In this document: in pieces, positions 5,026 to 15,070 of the stretch
Numbering within the stretch: position 1 is the stretch's first letter
How the letters are laid out: the number at the start of each line of letters is the position of its first letter
Program-made: the position numbers and the translations under genes
Assembly: GCA_964645535.1 (NCBI GenBank)
Contig: CAZYCQ010000028.1
Coordinates: 1-19,585, forward strand
Length of the DNA: 19,585 bases
Reading direction: 5' to 3'
Source: an uncultured archaeon
GTDB lineage: Archaea; Asgardarchaeota; Heimdallarchaeia; Heimdallarchaeales; Kariarchaeaceae
The notes under the pieces: model-generated
Told to the model about the DNA's origin: nothing
Database searches by the model: none
Seen by the model: only the letters and a program-made list of their open reading frames with translations

Positions 5026-5053
5026 GCGGGAATTTTGTTTAAATTTGGCGGTA
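5026..5053. promoter_or_regulatory. Pair of E2F-like sites in the DoxX/ATPase E divergent promoter region
   Basis: GCGGGAATT at 5026-5034 and AAATTTGGCGGTA at 5041-5053. The second is the exact reverse complement of 9686-9698. Confidence 0.4.
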
Positions 5054-9183: not shown

Positions 9184-9549
9184 TCAATCACTGAAAGGTT
9201 CAATTGATAGTTTAGCTTGATCATCAAGTTCAATTACAACTTCAGATCCACGATTTGCGACATTATAGATGGATCCTTCAGTGGACACCCTGATTTTTGA
9301 GGCAAAGAAGGATGTTCCGGATTCATTCCCTTGGGGTGGTATCGTTTGGTCATCTGTCCAAAAGATTCTGGTTCCCCCTCCTTCTCGTTCAGTTGTGATA
9401 AGGTTTGCTGCCTTCAGGATGGCAATGACATCGTACACCCGTCTTTTGGGTGTCCCAATAATTTCTGCAAGCTCTGCATTGTTGATACCTTCTTCGCCTT
9501 TTTGTTTGATTATTTCAATAGCTCTAGCAGCAATTTCTTTCAGTTTCAT
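9184..9549 (-). CDS. E2F/DP-family winged-helix DNA-binding protein (121 aa)
   Basis: NNAELAEIIGTPKRRVYDVIAILKAANLI...RIFW matches the E2F/DP signature RR(I/V)YD..(N)VL....(L/I)I...I.W. SD GAGGT at 9560-9556 and TATA-like TTTATA at 9626-9621. Confidence 0.75.
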   Translation of the reverse strand: MKLKEIAARAIEIIKQKGEEGINNAELAEIIGTPKRRVYDVIAILKAANLITTEREGGGTRIFWTDDQTIPPQGNESGTSFFASKIRVSTEGSIYNVANRGSEVVIELDDQAKLSIEPFSD

Positions 9550-9685
9550 ACTACAACCTCTTGCCAAATCGATGATAGTTCATCGTTTGTTTTTCTGAAT
9601 TATCTTAGCCCAATCTTCTCTATAAACATTATGCCATTGTTGAGAATGACCTTTTAATTCAGCAGTTTTGGGGTTTGTTCGCGTG

Positions 9686-9709
9686 TACCGCCAAATTTTT
9701 GAATTTGGC
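9686..9709. promoter_or_regulatory. E2F-like site and inverted repeat upstream of the E2F-like gene
   Basis: TACCGCCAAATTT at 9686-9698 contains TTTGGCGG on the minus strand. GCCAAATT-tttg-AATTTGGC at 9690-9709 is an inverted repeat with 8-bp arms. Confidence 0.45.
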
Positions 9710-9813
9710 TCCAAAATTGGAGGGCGATTGTGGTGAAAAAATATTACCAAAGAATATATACTAGTACATTTTGGGATTCCGAAATGATGATTGAATGTTC
9801 GATTCTCGCGATA

Positions 9814-9836
9814 GACGCGCGACATTGTCGCGCGTC
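9814..9836. promoter_or_regulatory. Perfect CGCGCG inverted repeat, candidate operator
   Basis: GACGCGCGACA-T-TGTCGCGCGTC, with 11-bp arms and a 1-nt spacer, in an AT-rich divergent intergenic region. Confidence 0.6.
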
Positions 9837-9892
9837 AATTTTCAAGGAAAATTGAGAGCGTTCCTGTTTCCAGTCATTTGCTTTATTAACTA

Positions 9893-11071
9893 ATGGAGGA
9901 AGCCTATTTTGTTTTGCAGGAAAGGAGAGTTTCACAATTTCTTGGTTCAGTTGTTGGATCGGTGACGGCAGAGATTTTTGCCCAAGCTAAACTATTGCAA
10001 AGGCAAGGAAAATCCATAATCAACTTAGCAATTGGACAACCAGATTTCCTACCACCTAACGAGGTGTTGTCCACTGCTTCCAGAGCGATACTTGAAGGCA
10101 ACGTTCGGTATGCTGAAAGTAAAGGAATTTATGAACTTAGAAAAGCAGTAACAGATTATTATGGTCTTCCCCTTGATGTTGAAAACGAAGTAGTCATTAC
10201 GACAGGTGCAAAAATGGGGATTTTTGCATCGATCTGGACAGTGTGCAATCCAGGAGACAATGTTGTTATCCTTGATCCTTCTTGGGTATCTTATGGTTCC
10301 ATTGTTAAGTCCTTGGGATGTGAACCTCGTTACGTTGAAACAGGTCCGGATTTTGTTTTTGACGAAGAAGATTTGATAAGGAAAATCGATGGAAGGACAA
10401 AAGCAGTCATCGTAAACACCCCTTCAAATCCGACAGGGCAGATAATTGGTCAAACTCAATTTCAGAGGATTTTTGAACTTTGTGCCTCCAACGAGATTCT
10501 TTTGGTCAGCGATGAAATCTACAATGAATACGTCTTTGGATCGAAAAAGTTTACCTCGTTGGGTAGCATTAAGAATTGGAAAGAGCATGGAGTAATTGTC
10601 AATGGATTTTCCAAGACTTTTTCGATGACTGGTTTCAGATTAGGTTATACATTATCCAACGAAGTGATTGCCAAGGAAATCAACAAGGTAATGCAATTGA
10701 CAGCAAGTTGTGCATCACCCTTTGCTCAACTAGCTGGGATTTCTGGTTTGGAGCATATTGATGACATGAGAGAAAGGATTCAAACAATTATGAAGCCCCG
10801 TTTGAAAAGATTGATTGAGTTGGATGAGGAGCTGGAGGGGTTCAAGCTCCTTCCTCCTCAAGGAGCCATGTATGGGTGGTTCCAATTGGATGGAAAGGTG
10901 GAAAGTGCAAAATGGGCGCAACAACTCCTATCGGAAAAAGGGGTAGCTGTGACACCGGGTATCGGTTTTGGTCCACATGGAGAGGGATGGTTCAGAGTTT
11001 CCTTTGCAACAGACCCAAGAGTGTTGGAGGAAGGACTTCGCAAAATAGAGGAATTTGTAAGAGGTATTTAA
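9893..11071 (+). CDS. Class I/II PLP aminotransferase (aspartate aminotransferase-like)
   Basis: IGQPDF, NTPSNPTG, SDEIY, GFSKTFSMTGFRLGY and PG.GFG..GEGWFRVSF. The start could be TTG 9914. Confidence 0.9.
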   Translation: MEEAYFVLQERRVSQFLGSVVGSVTAEIFAQAKLLQRQGKSIINLAIGQPDFLPPNEVLSTASRAILEGNVRYAESKGIYELRKAVTDYYGLPLDVENEVVITTGAKMGIFASIWTVCNPGDNVVILDPSWVSYGSIVKSLGCEPRYVETGPDFVFDEEDLIRKIDGRTKAVIVNTPSNPTGQIIGQTQFQRIFELCASNEILLVSDEIYNEYVFGSKKFTSLGSIKNWKEHGVIVNGFSKTFSMTGFRLGYTLSNEVIAKEINKVMQLTASCASPFAQLAGISGLEHIDDMRERIQTIMKPRLKRLIELDEELEGFKLLPPQGAMYGWFQLDGKVESAKWAQQLLSEKGVAVTPGIGFGPHGEGWFRVSFATDPRVLEEGLRKIEEFVRGI

Positions 11072-14000
11072 TGGGAGACAAAAATTGAAGGACTTCCGAG
11101 TTCTTTGATCAGAGAATCTATATGGAATACCAAGGTTCTGACTTCAGAAGGATTTTGTTCAAGCATTGAATAAAGATTTGTGGCTTTTTCCAAGAAAGCA
11201 GAATTTGAGTCGGAAAGATTGATGATTGTTTGTAGGTAGTCCAAGGCAATTGAACTTATATCATTCTTGCAATTTTCATTGAATTCACAATCCATGAGGT
11301 AATAAAAAAGCCCAATGGCATAGAGGCCTGTGAGCAGTTCTGATGAGAGTTGGTTTGCTTTTGAGGCCTTTCGTTTTAAGGTTTGGAGGAGGGATCGCAA
11401 TTCATGGTATCCCTCAGTAACCATATCCAAGGCCTGATAAAAACGCATCCAATCCCTAAATCGTGCATGGATGGAATATTTCGCTTCAAATTTCTGTTTT
11501 GAATTAATTATTTTATTGAATATACGCTGAAACTGGGGGCGGTTTTCCGGGATATTTTTACCAAAAGTAATAATGAGGATTTGGGCGTATTCAATATGTT
11601 TCCTTTCTTTCGTTCGGATATAAGCAATAATAAGTTCATCTATGGCAAGTTCAATCATTTCAAGTACTCTTTCTTTTGGAAGGGCTTTTGTGGACTCAAT
11701 AATTTTTGGGGCATATTGGATAAAGGTTGCGGCATTTGCGGGAGTAGGATTACTTTCATAATTTTCCACCATTCGAAGGAATGCATCGATCACCATTTCG
11801 GAAAATTGTTTGATCTGATCATTTTCTTTTCCTGAATCGCGGATCAATTCAATTCCTTCGATGGCGAGATGATAAGCCAATTCACCTTCTCCTTTTTGTA
11901 AGAGTTCATGATGGCCGGTTTTGAGTTCGCTCAGAACATCGTCAACACGGTTCTGGCTTTTGTAGATTTCAATTAGATCCTGTTTGATTTGTACAATTTG
12001 TTCAGGATTAAGGTATCCTTGATGGCTTTCTTCCATTGCAAGCTGGGATTTAAGTATTCTTTCCTTAATGTCAAGGTCTGTATTCAGGTCAAGAGAAATT
12101 TGAACCAATTCATGCGCAATTGGAGCCATATTCATTTCAATAAGAGTTTTTTGGAGGTGAAGAAGTTTGTCTACCCATGGAATTTCAGCCATCTGTCGAA
12201 TGGTGAAAAACATTCGGTAAAATGTAACCAAAGATTCGATATCTCTGACTTCAAGAGCCACATCAATCGCTTGATCCATAATTTCGGAGAGTAGATCAAG
12301 ATCTTCGTTTAAGACGCTCATTTCAGTAATATCATAGAATATTTGTATGGAAAACCGTCTTTCTTTAATTAGAATTTCCTTATTAACAGCATTTAATGCG
12401 GATCTGGCCATTGCTTTTAGAATTTGGTGTCGATGCTGAGTGTAATTCAGAAAATTTGCGGCAAAATCAAGTAATTGAAGATAAAGGGAATACTTACCGT
12501 ATTTTCCAGCAGTGATTAGTAACTTTTCAATTATGGGTGAAACACGGTCTGCATCATTACGATGTTCTCGTAGATACTCCATCAGATCATCAATAAGGGA
12601 AGGATCATCTTCTTCTTCTTCAAAGATGAGATCAAGAAGCCTTGCATTGATGATTGCAATCAAGTCTTGAAACTCTTCGAAATGGATCAAATGCTCTTTA
12701 ATTATCTTGAGAACCTGAACCTGTTCAAGAATGGGAACCTTTTCGATATTTTTGGTAATGGCAACCGTAAAAGAAAGAATCAAACGTTTTCGTTTTTCTT
12801 GTGTCAATTTTGTGAAGAGATTTTGAATCTGCTCGATAAGAATCGGACCAGCGGGAGCAACTTCTAGGGCATTGACTAAATAGGGGGTCAGCATATCTGC
12901 AAGACCCTTTTCATTGGTTGTAGGAAGGGAGGTAGCCCATAGCAAAATTTCAAAAATTTCGAGGCTGTGAATCTCCTCATCTATGTTATCAAATTCATGC
13001 AATCGTAGAGTAAGAGCATCTTCTACAAGTCCAACCGTGGCTAGTGCATTAGCAAGAGATACCTTCTCATCCTTGGTTTTTGCAATGTCCACGAAGTCAA
13101 GGTAAATTTCAGCAAGGATATCACGGATTTCATTTTCTGGATTTGGGAAATTAACAGTAAGTATTTCGATGAAGCTTAGAATCTGTTGACTTCCCCATTT
13201 GGAAATTTTGTTCCCAATTTTTTTTATGATTTGAAAGAGACGTTGCTCGATAACAATTTCGATAACTGAACCAATGACCATAAGGGCAATTTCTTTTTCA
13301 TTTTGGGAGTACAAAAGGTCGGCAAGATTGACAAGGTTGACAAGTTCCTCTTGGGAAAATTCCGTTCGAATCGTCATGAAATCATTTATTGCATCTTTTG
13401 TGAGAAATTGGAGAAGATCAGAACCTAAAAGGGATAGCTGTTCAGAGTATTTGGCGATAAAGTTCATATTCGGCATTTCATTTTCGAAGTTTTCCAATTC
13501 ATTCAGCATTGGAATGAAGTCTTGATATCTTTGTTGCCTTTCAGTTTCTGCAAAAGAACTAAGGTAGTCGAGAAGGTAAAATCCAATTCTTGACAATGAA
13601 GGTATGGAAGAGGTGAGTACTTGCTGAAGTCCCTTAATTGGAATCTGTTCACTCTTGAATTCGATTTCCAAGGTATTATAGGTAATCTTTGTGCGTGAAG
13701 CATTGAGTAGAGCAAGAGGATTAAATGCAATCAAATTCCATAGATAGTTGGCAAGTTCAGAAAAGGTTTCAAATGAAAGAGCTGCTTTTGGAAAAGAAAA
13801 GTCCATGATTGAATAGTTATCAGGATCGATTTCTTCCGTTGGAGAAAAGTTAAGCAATTCTTCAACAAGTTCATCCCAATATTTGGAAGTGCTGTGCAAG
13901 AAATTCCAGATAGTTACAATGAACCGTTTCCTGTTTTCATCATCTTCAATGATTGGAATTGATAGGAAAACACCACCTTGCATTTCCACCTTCCAACCGA

Positions 14001-14202
14001 AGAAAAAGATACGACGTTTGTTGATGAATAGGGTGCCATGGTCTTCCCAAGGATCAAAATTTGTTGTGTCGGAAATCCATTCCTCAACAACCGATGTAAA
14101 CATCTGATCCCTCTCCCCTTTCCATAAGACGGAATAATCACCTAGATTTTCAAGATTAGAGGTTCCTTCTTTTAAGGAGGTAAGTAAGCAAAGACTAATC
14201 AT
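11068..14202 (-). CDS. Large hypothetical protein (1044 aa): N-terminal alpha/beta domain followed by a long alpha-helical solenoid-like region
   Basis: Long uninterrupted ORF with L/E/I-rich amphipathic helices and no TM segments. Its ATG overlaps the upstream stop codon (ATGA). Confidence 0.85.
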   Translation of the reverse strand: MISLCLLTSLKEGTSNLENLGDYSVLWKGERDQMFTSVVEEWISDTTNFDPWEDHGTLFINKRRIFFFGWKVEMQGGVFLSIPIIEDDENRKRFIVTIWNFLHSTSKYWDELVEELLNFSPTEEIDPDNYSIMDFSFPKAALSFETFSELANYLWNLIAFNPLALLNASRTKITYNTLEIEFKSEQIPIKGLQQVLTSSIPSLSRIGFYLLDYLSSFAETERQQRYQDFIPMLNELENFENEMPNMNFIAKYSEQLSLLGSDLLQFLTKDAINDFMTIRTEFSQEELVNLVNLADLLYSQNEKEIALMVIGSVIEIVIEQRLFQIIKKIGNKISKWGSQQILSFIEILTVNFPNPENEIRDILAEIYLDFVDIAKTKDEKVSLANALATVGLVEDALTLRLHEFDNIDEEIHSLEIFEILLWATSLPTTNEKGLADMLTPYLVNALEVAPAGPILIEQIQNLFTKLTQEKRKRLILSFTVAITKNIEKVPILEQVQVLKIIKEHLIHFEEFQDLIAIINARLLDLIFEEEEDDPSLIDDLMEYLREHRNDADRVSPIIEKLLITAGKYGKYSLYLQLLDFAANFLNYTQHRHQILKAMARSALNAVNKEILIKERRFSIQIFYDITEMSVLNEDLDLLSEIMDQAIDVALEVRDIESLVTFYRMFFTIRQMAEIPWVDKLLHLQKTLIEMNMAPIAHELVQISLDLNTDLDIKERILKSQLAMEESHQGYLNPEQIVQIKQDLIEIYKSQNRVDDVLSELKTGHHELLQKGEGELAYHLAIEGIELIRDSGKENDQIKQFSEMVIDAFLRMVENYESNPTPANAATFIQYAPKIIESTKALPKERVLEMIELAIDELIIAYIRTKERKHIEYAQILIITFGKNIPENRPQFQRIFNKIINSKQKFEAKYSIHARFRDWMRFYQALDMVTEGYHELRSLLQTLKRKASKANQLSSELLTGLYAIGLFYYLMDCEFNENCKNDISSIALDYLQTIINLSDSNSAFLEKATNLYSMLEQNPSEVRTLVFHIDSLIKELGSPSIFVSH

Positions 14203-14555
14203 TTGGTTCCCTCCAGTTCAAGGATGCTCTCCATTTTGATGACAAGATCCTCATAGTACTCCAATAACCAAAGACTAATGTCATTTTCCTCAACGAATGG
14301 TGTTGAAATTTTTGTAATGTGGTCTTTGATTGCACCATGGATTTGTGAATCTTCTATGAAATTAACTTCTGACCAAATAGAAGATGCAAATGACCCTACG
14401 AGTGGCTCATTGTCAAGTATCTGTTCAATTTGGATTGCCAATTCGGTGAATCGATCTTTAGTGGATTGGAGTTCCATTTCTACTTTTTTTCTTGGTTGTT
14501 TGAATACAGGCTTTTTTCTGCGAAAGAAGTTTAACCGAATGCCGAACAGGTTCAT
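14199..14555 (-). CDS. Small helical hypothetical protein with a hydrophobic/basic N-terminus
   Basis: Translationally coupled to the 1044-aa gene. AAAATTATAA at 14590-14581 suggests a leaderless ATG at 14555 (or 14561) rather than 14633. Confidence 0.7.
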   Translation of the reverse strand: MNLFGIRLNFFRRKKPVFKQPRKKVEMELQSTKDRFTELAIQIEQILDNEPLVGSFASSIWSEVNFIEDSQIHGAIKDHITKISTPFVEENDISLWLLEYYEDLVIKMESILELEGTK

Positions 14556-14611
14556 CTTCATCCAATATGGCAACAGCACCTTATAATTTTGTGCGAAACT
14601 TAATGGAATAA

Positions 14612-15070
14612 TTAGAGTTCCGGTTGATCCCAAGTGGCATATTGTTCAACCCATTGGCGAACCTTCTGTTTGAAACCTTCTGGATCTTCTTTCATCATTT
14701 TGGCAGCTCCTGAATGAAGAGGGTCGTCAGGATTAGGATTACTCAACAAAAATCTAAGGCTTTCGACTACATCAACCAAATTGTTGGCAGGAGTCCAATC
14801 TTTGCCTAGGATCCCAATGCAAATTCGATCCTTGAAGAAATTCGGATGGAATATTTGTGTCTTTGTTTTTACAATAGGGGGTTTGAATGGGTATTCTCTA
14901 GGAATTTGGATCTCAAACACAAATACCCCATCACTGTATAGACCCGTTCCAATAATAAATCCCTTCCATCTTGTAATATCATTGTCAATTGGTTCAAAAC
15001 TTGGTTCCTCTCTTTTCATTTCATCGGCTTCGATAGCTAATCTGGCCCAGTAATCATCTTCTGGAAGTAT
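14612..15070 (-). CDS. Ubiquitin-conjugating enzyme E2, apparent ATA start
   Basis: W.G.I.G...Y..G.F, PREYPFKPP, FHPN, catalytic Cys in RICIGIL, WTPA and PNPDDPL. The frame extends upstream of ATG 15019 as ILPEDDYWARLAIEADEM (E2 helix 1) up to TAG 15079-15077. Confidence 0.93.
   Translation of the reverse strand: MLPEDDYWARLAIEADEMKREEPSFEPIDNDITRWKGFIIGTGLYSDGVFVFEIQIPREYPFKPPIVKTKTQIFHPNFFKDRICIGILGKDWTPANNLVDVVESLRFLLSNPNPDDPLHSGAAKMMKEDPEGFKQKVRQWVEQYATWDQPEL

Follow-up and report, generated by a model that had tools for sequence, protein, structure and literature searches.

The window, a stretch of 19,585 nucleotides from the source genome (G000) of a Heimdall-group Asgard archaeon, carries on the minus strand a gene for a small E2F/DP-like winged-helix protein and, divergent from it on the plus strand, a gene for a class I/II aminotransferase. 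The genes for ribosomal proteins S8 and L6 are downstream of the E2F-like gene. Between the two divergent genes lie a perfect palindrome, made of two 11-nt arms around a single central nucleotide, and a series of shorter boxes (Table 1). The palindrome, the TCGCGA beside it and an A/T-rich inverted repeat on its other side had been pointed out in an initial annotation of this DNA, and all are present as claimed; the arms of the inverted repeat are 9 nt long (9835-9843 and 9847-9855), which extends the AATTTTC-aag-GAAAATT seen at 9837-9853. The palindrome had been placed upstream of the E2F-like gene. It is indeed upstream, with its centre 276 nt from the ATG at 9549, but the aminotransferase is physically nearer, its TATA box being 57 nt and its TTG codon 89 nt away.

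The longest open reading frame of the aminotransferase begins at an ATG (9893). The TTG at 9914 follows the predicted TATA box by about 30 nt, and the mRNA of this gene is most likely leaderless. On the other side, the proximal TATA box of the E2F-like gene is part of a CATAATGTTTATAG block conserved in four genomes. Further upstream, an aligned A/T box looks like a second promoter (P2) directed toward the same gene. Relative to this putative P2, the palindrome would be at about -98, and the GAGCCAAA/TTTGGCGG dyad would be just downstream of the start. A second, smaller palindrome close to the E2F-like ATG shows symmetric (compensated) differences between genomes, and a similar one is found in G004.

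Table 1. Features of the locus, with distances measured from the centre of the palindrome (9825 in G000) in the four genomes of the genus.
Feature	Position	Strand	Distance from palindrome centre (nt)	Spacing	Remarks
E2F/DP-like winged-helix gene, 121 aa	9184-9549	minus	276-305 to ATG (276 in G000)	varies	Pfam PF02319
Palindrome CGATGA-n4-TCATCG	9570-9585	minus			in the E2F-like 5' leader or overlapping the transcription start
Proximal TATA box of E2F-like gene, ATGTTTATAG	9620-9629	minus	196-209	varies	about 75 nt upstream of the ATG
Everted dyad GAGCCAAA-N8-TTTGGCGG	9688-9711	minus	114-116 (half GAGCCAA); 130-132 (half WWWGGCGG)	constant (both halves)	TTTGGCGG at 9688-9695
Invariant block TATTTTTTCA	9734-9743	minus	82-85	constant	longest invariant run of the intergenic region
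TATA-like box GTATATATTC (TATATATT in G000, TATTTAAG in congeners)	9752-9761	minus	about 68	fixed (±2 nt)	aligned A/T box in 4/4 genomes; putative P2
TATCGCGA box, containing palindromic TCGCGA (9806-9811)	9806-9813	minus	12-13	constant	on the E2F-gene side of the palindrome
Perfect 11+1+11 palindrome GACGCGCGACA-T-TGTCGCGCGTC	9814-9836	none			centre 9825
17-bp palindrome core GCGCGACAWTGTCGCGC	9817-9833				
A/T-rich inverted repeat TCAATTTTC-n3-GAAAATTGA	9835-9855				on the aminotransferase side of the palindrome
Aminotransferase TATA box, TTTATTAA	9882-9889	plus	57, 60 and 69 (three genomes)	varies	inferred by comparison with G001-G003
Class I/II aminotransferase gene	9914-11071	plus			Pfam PF00155; probable leaderless TTG start at 9914

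A single-copy palindrome conserved within one genus

The source genome comprises 3.62 Mb in 176 contigs, with 41% GC and a CpG observed/expected ratio of 0.65. A genome-wide count found the 23-bp palindrome to be a single copy in these 3.6 Mb, and each of its 10-11-nt arms also occurs only once. About eight perfect palindromes with arms of at least 11 nt and spacers of at most 3 nt exist genome-wide; the one at 9814-9836 is the sole GC-rich one among them (73% GC in the arms), and a simple composition estimate gives well below 0.05 GC-rich palindromes of such arm length per genome. In the window, CGCGCG is found at 9816 and 9829 only, which bears out the earlier remark that it occurs nowhere else there. 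The genome as a whole has 21 copies, two of them in tRNA genes and most others inside ORFs, and none of its other CGCGCG or GCGCGC sites is similar to the palindrome. CGCG itself had been called scarce in the window, but 14 occurrences were observed versus 13.6 expected from the dinucleotide content, so that it is not scarce relative to composition. The unusual part is the clustering, with 5 of the 14 within 28 nt.

All four genomes of the genus were compared, namely the source and its congeners G001, G002 and G003, whose orthologs are 72-78% identical to those of the source for the E2F-like protein and 58-65% identical for the aminotransferase. The core GCGCGACAWTGTCGCGC was present in the four genomes, once in each, approximately 280-300 nt upstream of the E2F/DP-like gene (about 285-313 nt in the three congeners). 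In the four-way alignment of the intergenic region, 31% of the ungapped columns were invariant overall; for the core it was 16 of the 17 columns, which none of 20000 column shuffles equalled. All 16 arm positions of the core are unchanged while the adjacent DNA diverges. The three outermost base pairs of each 11-nt arm vary among congeners, and the double CGCGCG, which had been taken for the key unit, turned out not to be the conserved part: both hexamers are lost in G001 and one is lost in G002, and the conserved unit is GCGCGACAWTGTCGCGC. The TCGCGA/TATCGCGA box is kept in three of the four genomes (G000, G002 and G003) and missing in G001. The A/T-rich inverted repeat is not conserved in G001-G003, and by this comparison it is probably outside the functional core.

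Allowing at most one mismatch, the core was absent from the 396 other genomes of a 400-genome Asgard sample, which belong to 84 other genera out of the 85 sampled. Allowing at most two, it was absent from 42 of the 43 other genomes of the order. The lone two-mismatch match was in G018, on a contig that has no relation to that genome's E2F-like gene, and a reversed control pattern used at the same threshold gave matches in three genomes. No further relatives were found in metagenome scans, and the homologues P0001 and P0005-P0009 are 61-93% identical proteins. The palindrome is thus a genus-specific single-copy element. Since it is unique in the genome and confined to the genus, it does not qualify as a MITE or as a widespread motif; a dispersed repeat, which the initial annotation had considered, is ruled out by the one copy in G000 and in each congener and by the lack of any copy in the 396 other Asgard genomes.

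Fixed spacings and gene order

From the palindrome centre to the distant half of the everted dyad, the boxes on the E2F-gene side keep their spacing in the four genomes (Table 1). The DNA between these fixed-spacing boxes is poorly conserved, and the other intergenic spacings drift by 12-29 nt.

In G000, G001 and G002, the gene order is L6, the E2F-like gene on the opposite strand, the intergenic region and the aminotransferase gene. A different order is found in G003, where the aminotransferase gene is followed by the palindrome, 15 nt past its stop codon, then by the E2F-like gene, with a peptidase gene downstream. In this rearranged genome, the E2F-like gene has retained the palindrome and its whole 290-nt upstream unit, and no CGCG palindrome was found in the aminotransferase promoter. 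An aminotransferase operator is disfavoured, because the palindrome remained beside the E2F-like gene and the G003 aminotransferase promoter is devoid of the site. It is likely that the palindrome serves the E2F-like gene.

The E2F-like protein and E2F-type words

The E2F-like protein matched Pfam PF02319 (E2F_TDP) with 36.5 bits (cut-off 25.7, E 3.9e-9). It is the sole match to this family in the genome, and no other Pfam domain was matched in the protein. Its recognition helix reads KRRVYDV, and 14 homologues all share R36, R37, Y39 and D40. The best sequence matches in the PDB were E2F8 (4yo2, RRRIYDI) and E2F4 (1cf7, KRRIYDI), with the RRxYD residues aligned; in the structure of E2F4-DP2 with DNA (PDB 1CF7), the arginines of RRxYD read the guanines of the CGCG core. 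The AF2 model had a pLDDT of 83 overall, and of about 90 in the wHTH part, and its secondary structure (helices 3-20, 24-31 and 35-47, strands 51-56 and 59-64) is that of a winged helix. With PF02319 matched above cut-off and RRxYD invariant, the protein is a genuine E2F/DP winged helix, as had been proposed. A Foldseek search against the PDB returned generic wHTH neighbours, the top ones being ArsR- and MarR-family repressors and E2F not being top-ranked, but these neighbours say nothing on DNA specificity.

Beyond the wHTH, the protein consists of a disordered linker and then a conserved four-stranded beta domain. The coiled-coil/marked-box dimerisation module and the pocket-protein-binding tail are absent from the 121 aa, and the protein is a family member by its DNA-binding domain only. 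Prediction of a homodimer gave a score of 0.34 (mark 0.42), to which we attach no weight in either direction.

Few eukaryotic cell-cycle transcription factors have clear homologues in Asgard archaea, and E2F/DP proteins are among them. The existence of these homologues, to which the gene at 9184-9549 belongs, has already been published, together with the observations that the base-contact residues are conserved and the domains for dimerisation and regulator binding missing, and with the suggestion that these proteins probably recognise similar DNA motifs (Eme et al. 2023, PMC10307638, Suppl. 4.1.5), and it is repeated in a 2024 review (PMC7617429). The recognition of E2F-like motifs by Asgard E2F/DP proteins, an idea on which the initial annotation built, was in print before (Eme et al. 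2023). In the literature searched on E2F with Asgard, Heimdallarchaeota or Lokiarchaeota, no candidate binding site, operator or autoregulation was reported for these proteins. What is new at this locus is the palindrome, together with its single-copy conservation across the genus, its movement along with the gene and the module of fixed geometry, the gene itself and the general inference being known.

Inspection of the intergenic region for E2F-type words revealed that the partner box of the palindrome, TTTGGCGG(GAAA), contains an exact match to the E2F consensus TTTSSCGS, TTTGGCGG, which is TTTGGCGGGAAA in G001 and G002. The arms of the palindrome, read outward, give TGTCGCGC, which departs from the classical E2F site TTTCGCGC at a single position of the T-tract. 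For G001, an inward reading of the distal arm gives TTTGGCGCGAC, also given as TTTGGCGC, and either form matches the consensus exactly. By our estimate, one-mismatch matches to an 8-mer consensus arise about 1-2 times by chance in a 340-nt intergenic region, and since chance matches are common, the similarity between arms and E2F sites weighs little alone.

Upstream of the E2F-like genes of the order (17 regions), nine E2F consensus words were observed, versus 0.97 expected. The word TTTGGCGG was found on the sense strand in three genera (5 loci), and it abuts the TATA box in G008 and in both paralogues of G007. Orthologues thus do have E2F-type words in their upstream regions. The palindrome is kept within the genus only, and the word shared across genera, TTTGGCGG, has no CGCG. 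Whole-genome copies of TTTGGCGG number 40 in G007 and 16 in G008, and in the source genome 11 of 144 are outside ORFs, which is no enrichment. E2F words were not enriched at 32 Thorarchaeota-type E2F-like loci, which carry other conserved repeats, TCGGAAAATCG / CGATTTTTCGA. A 13-mer containing TTTGGCGG has only one other copy in the source genome, at 5041-5053 in front of the V-ATPase E gene; the corresponding promoters of G001, G002, G003, G007 and G008 do not conserve this copy, and a wider TTTGGCGG regulon is unsupported. Autoregulation through E2F-type words is likely in the E2F-like family, judging from the words themselves.

Binder and role of the palindrome

We estimate at roughly 0.8 the probability that the palindrome is a protein-binding operator on DNA. 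Among the candidates, the E2F-like protein is the most likely binder, at odds that we place a little below even. This candidate is favoured because the palindrome remained linked to the gene through the rearrangement, because it is unique, because its GCGCG cores fit RRxYD and because its spacing to TTTGGCGG is rigid. A unique genomic site is typical of a regulator's own operator. Three observations count against the E2F-like protein: the palindrome is restricted to one genus, being absent from other genera with closely similar recognition helices; its distance to the proximal promoter, about 200 bp to the TATA box, is large for a classical archaeal operator; and its likeness to TTTCGCGC is at chance level. 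The sole other intergenic-looking TGTCGCGC of the genome is a lone half-site, and since there is a single genomic site, there is no regulon with which the binder could be cross-checked.

The palindrome is best explained as the distal end of a cis-regulatory module of the E2F-like gene, of about 150 bp and fixed geometry. If the E2F-like protein is the binder, its RRxYD recognition helices would read the GCGCG cores of both arms, whose centres are separated by 12 bp, either as one prokaryote-style homodimer held by the C-terminal beta domain or as two E2F/DP-style dimers; oligomerisation through this conserved domain is assumed. The protein would also occupy the GAGCCAAA-N8-TTTGGCGG dyad about 126 bp away, which corresponds to about 12 helical turns and thus to the same face of the DNA, and cooperative binding or looping over the putative P2 would determine how its own gene is transcribed (autoregulation). 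The divergent aminotransferase promoter, which is 57-69 bp away in G000-G002, might be influenced there as well. In this scheme we infer that the palindrome acts on DNA and not on RNA, which protein binds it, that looping takes place and what sign the regulation has. The complete proposal, that in Kariarchaeaceae-type Heimdall archaea the protein binds both the palindrome and the TTTGGCGG dyad and autoregulates through a phased, looping two-operator module, is tentative, and we hold it for possible rather than probable.

The same conserved operator could be bound by a different dimeric DNA-binding protein, in which case the E2F-like gene would be the target of upstream signalling and not an autoregulator. 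Binding to GC-rich palindromes is a property of many unrelated regulators. The evidence for a conserved operator tied to the E2F-like gene applies equally to such a regulator, a genus-specific site would fit a lineage-specific one, and the E2F-type word that is shared across genera is TTTGGCGG, not the palindrome. Against it, the E2F-like and aminotransferase genes are the only constant neighbours of the site, and no second regulator gene was found near the locus. Moreover, the site and its half-sites are essentially unique, which would leave such a regulator without any further recognisable target, and the GCGCG cores fit the chemistry of RRxYD. We regard another regulator as somewhat unlikely.

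A shared divergent operator that would mainly control the aminotransferase promoter, in the manner of MarR or TetR systems, is unlikely, and would be compatible with binding by the E2F-like protein. It is in keeping with the position of the palindrome in G000-G002, 57-69 bp from the aminotransferase TATA box and nearer to it than to the E2F-like gene, and with the adjacency of the two genes in all four members of the genus; in G008, too, they are found in tandem, 35 nt apart. However, no GC-rich motif was found upstream of this aminotransferase-linked E2F-like paralogue of G008, and most E2F-like loci have no aminotransferase neighbour. The spacing to the aminotransferase TATA box varies by 12 bp, whereas that on the E2F-gene side is fixed, and in G003 the aminotransferase uses another promoter, without the site. 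Control of the divergent aminotransferase, which the initial annotation had suggested alongside autoregulation, is in view of the G003 rearrangement at best lineage-specific, restricted to G000-G002.

That the palindrome functions by folding into a hairpin or cruciform, whether as a stem-loop in an unannotated RNA, a signal for processing or termination or a cruciform in DNA, and not as a duplex site, we consider very improbable. The single-nucleotide spacer had been held to speak against a hairpin, an argument that does not settle the matter, since the palindrome folds well into a 10-bp GC stem with a 3-nt loop. The folding energy as DNA, including the neighbouring hairpin, is -17.6 kcal/mol (z -4.5), and as RNA the z-score is -3.6. 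In G003, moreover, the palindrome is just 3' of the aminotransferase stop codon. Against a hairpin, an Rfam search gave no match and a tRNA search none at the locus, which discards a known RNA or tRNA, and RNAalifold, run on both strands of the 170-nt module, found only two local dyads and no covariation. The palindrome arms have no compensatory or wobble changes among the four genomes, and the one change that adjoins the core, directly outside it in G002, is uncompensated. Arms that are frozen, without compensation, fit a readout of sequence and not a constraint on structure only. In three genomes the palindrome is upstream of both predicted TATA boxes and is probably not transcribed from either flanking promoter. 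No T-run follows it, and archaeal intrinsic termination depends on oligo-T, not on hairpins. A small protein gene was considered as well, an 81-aa ORF (9580-9825, minus strand) whose ATG is at the palindrome centre. This ORF is not conserved: in G002 it is interrupted by a stop some 24 codons in, the G003 sequence lacks the ATG, and 1-nt indels in the module exclude coding.

Less credible again is a chromosomal landmark, such as a replication-origin box, a dif-like site or a Z-DNA-prone (CG)3 element: the palindrome is single-copy, conserved and dyad-symmetric and adjoins an A/T-rich stretch, T(CG)3 is a classical Z-forming sequence, and the E2F-like protein has weak sequence matches to the Z-alpha domains of poxvirus E3 and ADAR (E 0.05-0.3; Foldseek 1qgp), but no Orc1/Cdc6 or Xer gene was found near the locus, no GC-skew switch occurs at the site, the CGCGCG hexamers are not conserved in G001, the palindrome moved with the E2F-like gene in G003, and a 1-nt centre (at most 7-nt palindromic) between arms of 5-8 conserved bases misfits Xer sites, which have 11-bp arms and a 6-8-bp spacer. 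The E3 and ADAR matches look like generic wHTH similarity, and the Asn/Tyr/Pro-Pro contact pattern of Z-alpha is, we presume, not evident in the archaeal protein. Structural and chromosomal roles taken together are left with a small probability.

Returning to the operator and to the E2F-like protein as its candidate binder, the locus resembles eukaryotic E2F/DP sites (TTTSGCGS) in that the neighbouring gene encodes an RRxYD protein, the arms contain a GCGCG core and the partner box TTTGGCGG is exact, and in that the sites precede the factor's own gene, as in the autoregulation of E2F1. It differs from them by the imperfect T-tract of the palindrome arms (TGT), by binding that is putative and by the protein, which has a small beta domain instead of the coiled-coil/marked-box and pocket-protein regions; everted arms with a 1-nt centre are, to our knowledge, an arrangement not described for E2F sites. 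The small wHTH protein, the perfect palindrome unique in the genome and its position between a regulator gene and a divergent enzyme gene recall autorepressors of the MarR, ArsR/SmtB and TrmB types. Unlike in these, the palindrome does not overlap the regulator gene's proximal TATA box, which is about 200 bp away, it stays with the regulator gene after rearrangement, and the protein belongs by sequence to the E2F/DP family. Two dyads at a constant distance of about 126 bp, next to spacers that drift, are reminiscent of the looping systems of LacI (O1/O3), AraC, DeoR and NagC, and looping is proposed here from the spacing. We know of no archaeal example of looping by an E2F-like protein.

Two short, testable DNA targets, the 17-23-bp palindrome and the TTTGGCGG dyad, thus precede the gene of this Asgard E2F/DP homologue at fixed spacing, and these targets bear on the question whether E2F-type recognition and autoregulation predate eukaryotes. 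Should the binder be another protein, the palindrome would still mark an unusually elaborate and rigidly spaced control region of an archaeal regulator gene. If looping autoregulation by the E2F-like protein is true, the E2F DNA code (a T-tract and S-GCG-S read through RRxYD) and self-regulation would both be pre-eukaryotic, and the palindrome would be a rare distal, enhancer-like operator in an archaeon.

Upstream regions of the E2F-like genes

Inspection of the leader of the E2F-like gene revealed a second palindrome, A/T-richer than the palindrome at 9814–9836. Counterparts were found at about −47 in locus L003 and at about −40 in locus L006, and the sequence differs symmetrically from genome to genome, a change in one arm being compensated in the other. 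It reads TGATGA/TCATCA in G002, forms a 9+1+9 palindrome in G001, and reads TGATATCA-T-TGATATCA in G004. This element might serve as an operator overlapping the start site or, alternatively, as a leader hairpin. Elsewhere in the genome, two other perfect palindromes, of 100 bp (50-nt arms) and of 14 bp (AAAGCGCGCGCTTT), were located in non-ORF regions of contigs C131 and C17.

The 3.6-Mb genome holds exactly two copies of the 13-mer AAATTTGGCGGTA, one ahead of the V-ATPase subunit E gene and one ahead of the E2F-like gene. When the V-ATPase subunit E promoter was compared in three congeners (G001, G002 and G003) and in two genomes of other genera (G007 and G008), the V-ATPase copy was not kept, whereas the TTCACAACTATTAAAAG promoter block was conserved in all five.

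For the Thor-type E2F-like genes (Thorarchaeota/Hermodarchaeota loci L030–L062), the upstream regions share conserved repeats at −60 to −160 from the start. These consist of CGATTTTTCGA and its inverse TCGGAAAATCG, placed about 12 nt ahead of a TTTAAATA box, and of a TGATAA-N6-TTATCA dyad between them. None of these conserved repeats matched the E2F consensus TTTSSCGS.

Features and their positions
Feature	Location	Strand	Context
AAATTTGGCGGTA, copy 1	window 5041–5053	+	14 nt upstream of TATA-like box, V-ATPase subunit E gene (ATG 5102)
AAATTTGGCGGTA, copy 2	window 9686–9698	-	upstream of E2F-like gene
CGATGA-n4-TCATCG	window 9570–9585	-	between proximal TATA and ATG of E2F-like gene
Beta domain	window 9184–9300		residues 86–118 of E2F-like protein
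ATG 9893, TTG 9914	window 9893–9916		alternative aminotransferase starts
Ubiquitin-conjugating E2 gene and two neighbours	window 11068–15019	-	
L007 gene pair	G008, C541:333–1851		
100-bp palindrome	C131:3795–3894		
14-bp palindrome	C17:28399–28412		

Aminotransferase start and gene linkage

The aminotransferase probably starts at the TTG and not at the ATG. TTG is the sole start codon at the equivalent position in G001 and G002. In these two genomes and the source genome, a TATA box lies about 27–33 nt upstream of the TTG, and this spacing suggests that the mRNAs are leaderless. The G003 gene begins with ATG, and its TATA-like box is some 40 nt ahead of that codon.

In G008, which belongs to another genus, the orthologous aminotransferase follows an E2F-like paralogue (L007) on the same strand after a gap of 35 nt. 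Two genera therefore show the linkage of the E2F-like and aminotransferase genes, and the gene pair is arranged in three different ways.

Elsewhere in the window, a ubiquitin-conjugating E2 gene (PF00179) adjoins two genes without Pfam match, one of which encodes a 1044-aa protein. Congeners retain this protein, but in strongly diverged form, with 31% identity in G002 and 22% in G003.

Domains of the E2F-like protein

A stretch encoded in a Candidatus Dadabacteria MAG (L063, RFKT01000039.1) is 48% identical to winged-helix residues 13–56 (tblastn E 8e-9). This bacterial match reflects gene transfer, a contaminated assembly or convergence between wHTH domains.

The C-terminal four-strand beta domain (consensus KIKVxTxGxIxNVSNRGxEVVIE...IEP) has no Pfam match and is common to all Heimdall-order homologues. 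Where eukaryotic E2F/DP proteins carry a coiled-coil/marked box, this domain is a candidate replacement in the archaeal homologues, possibly acting as the oligomerisation module.
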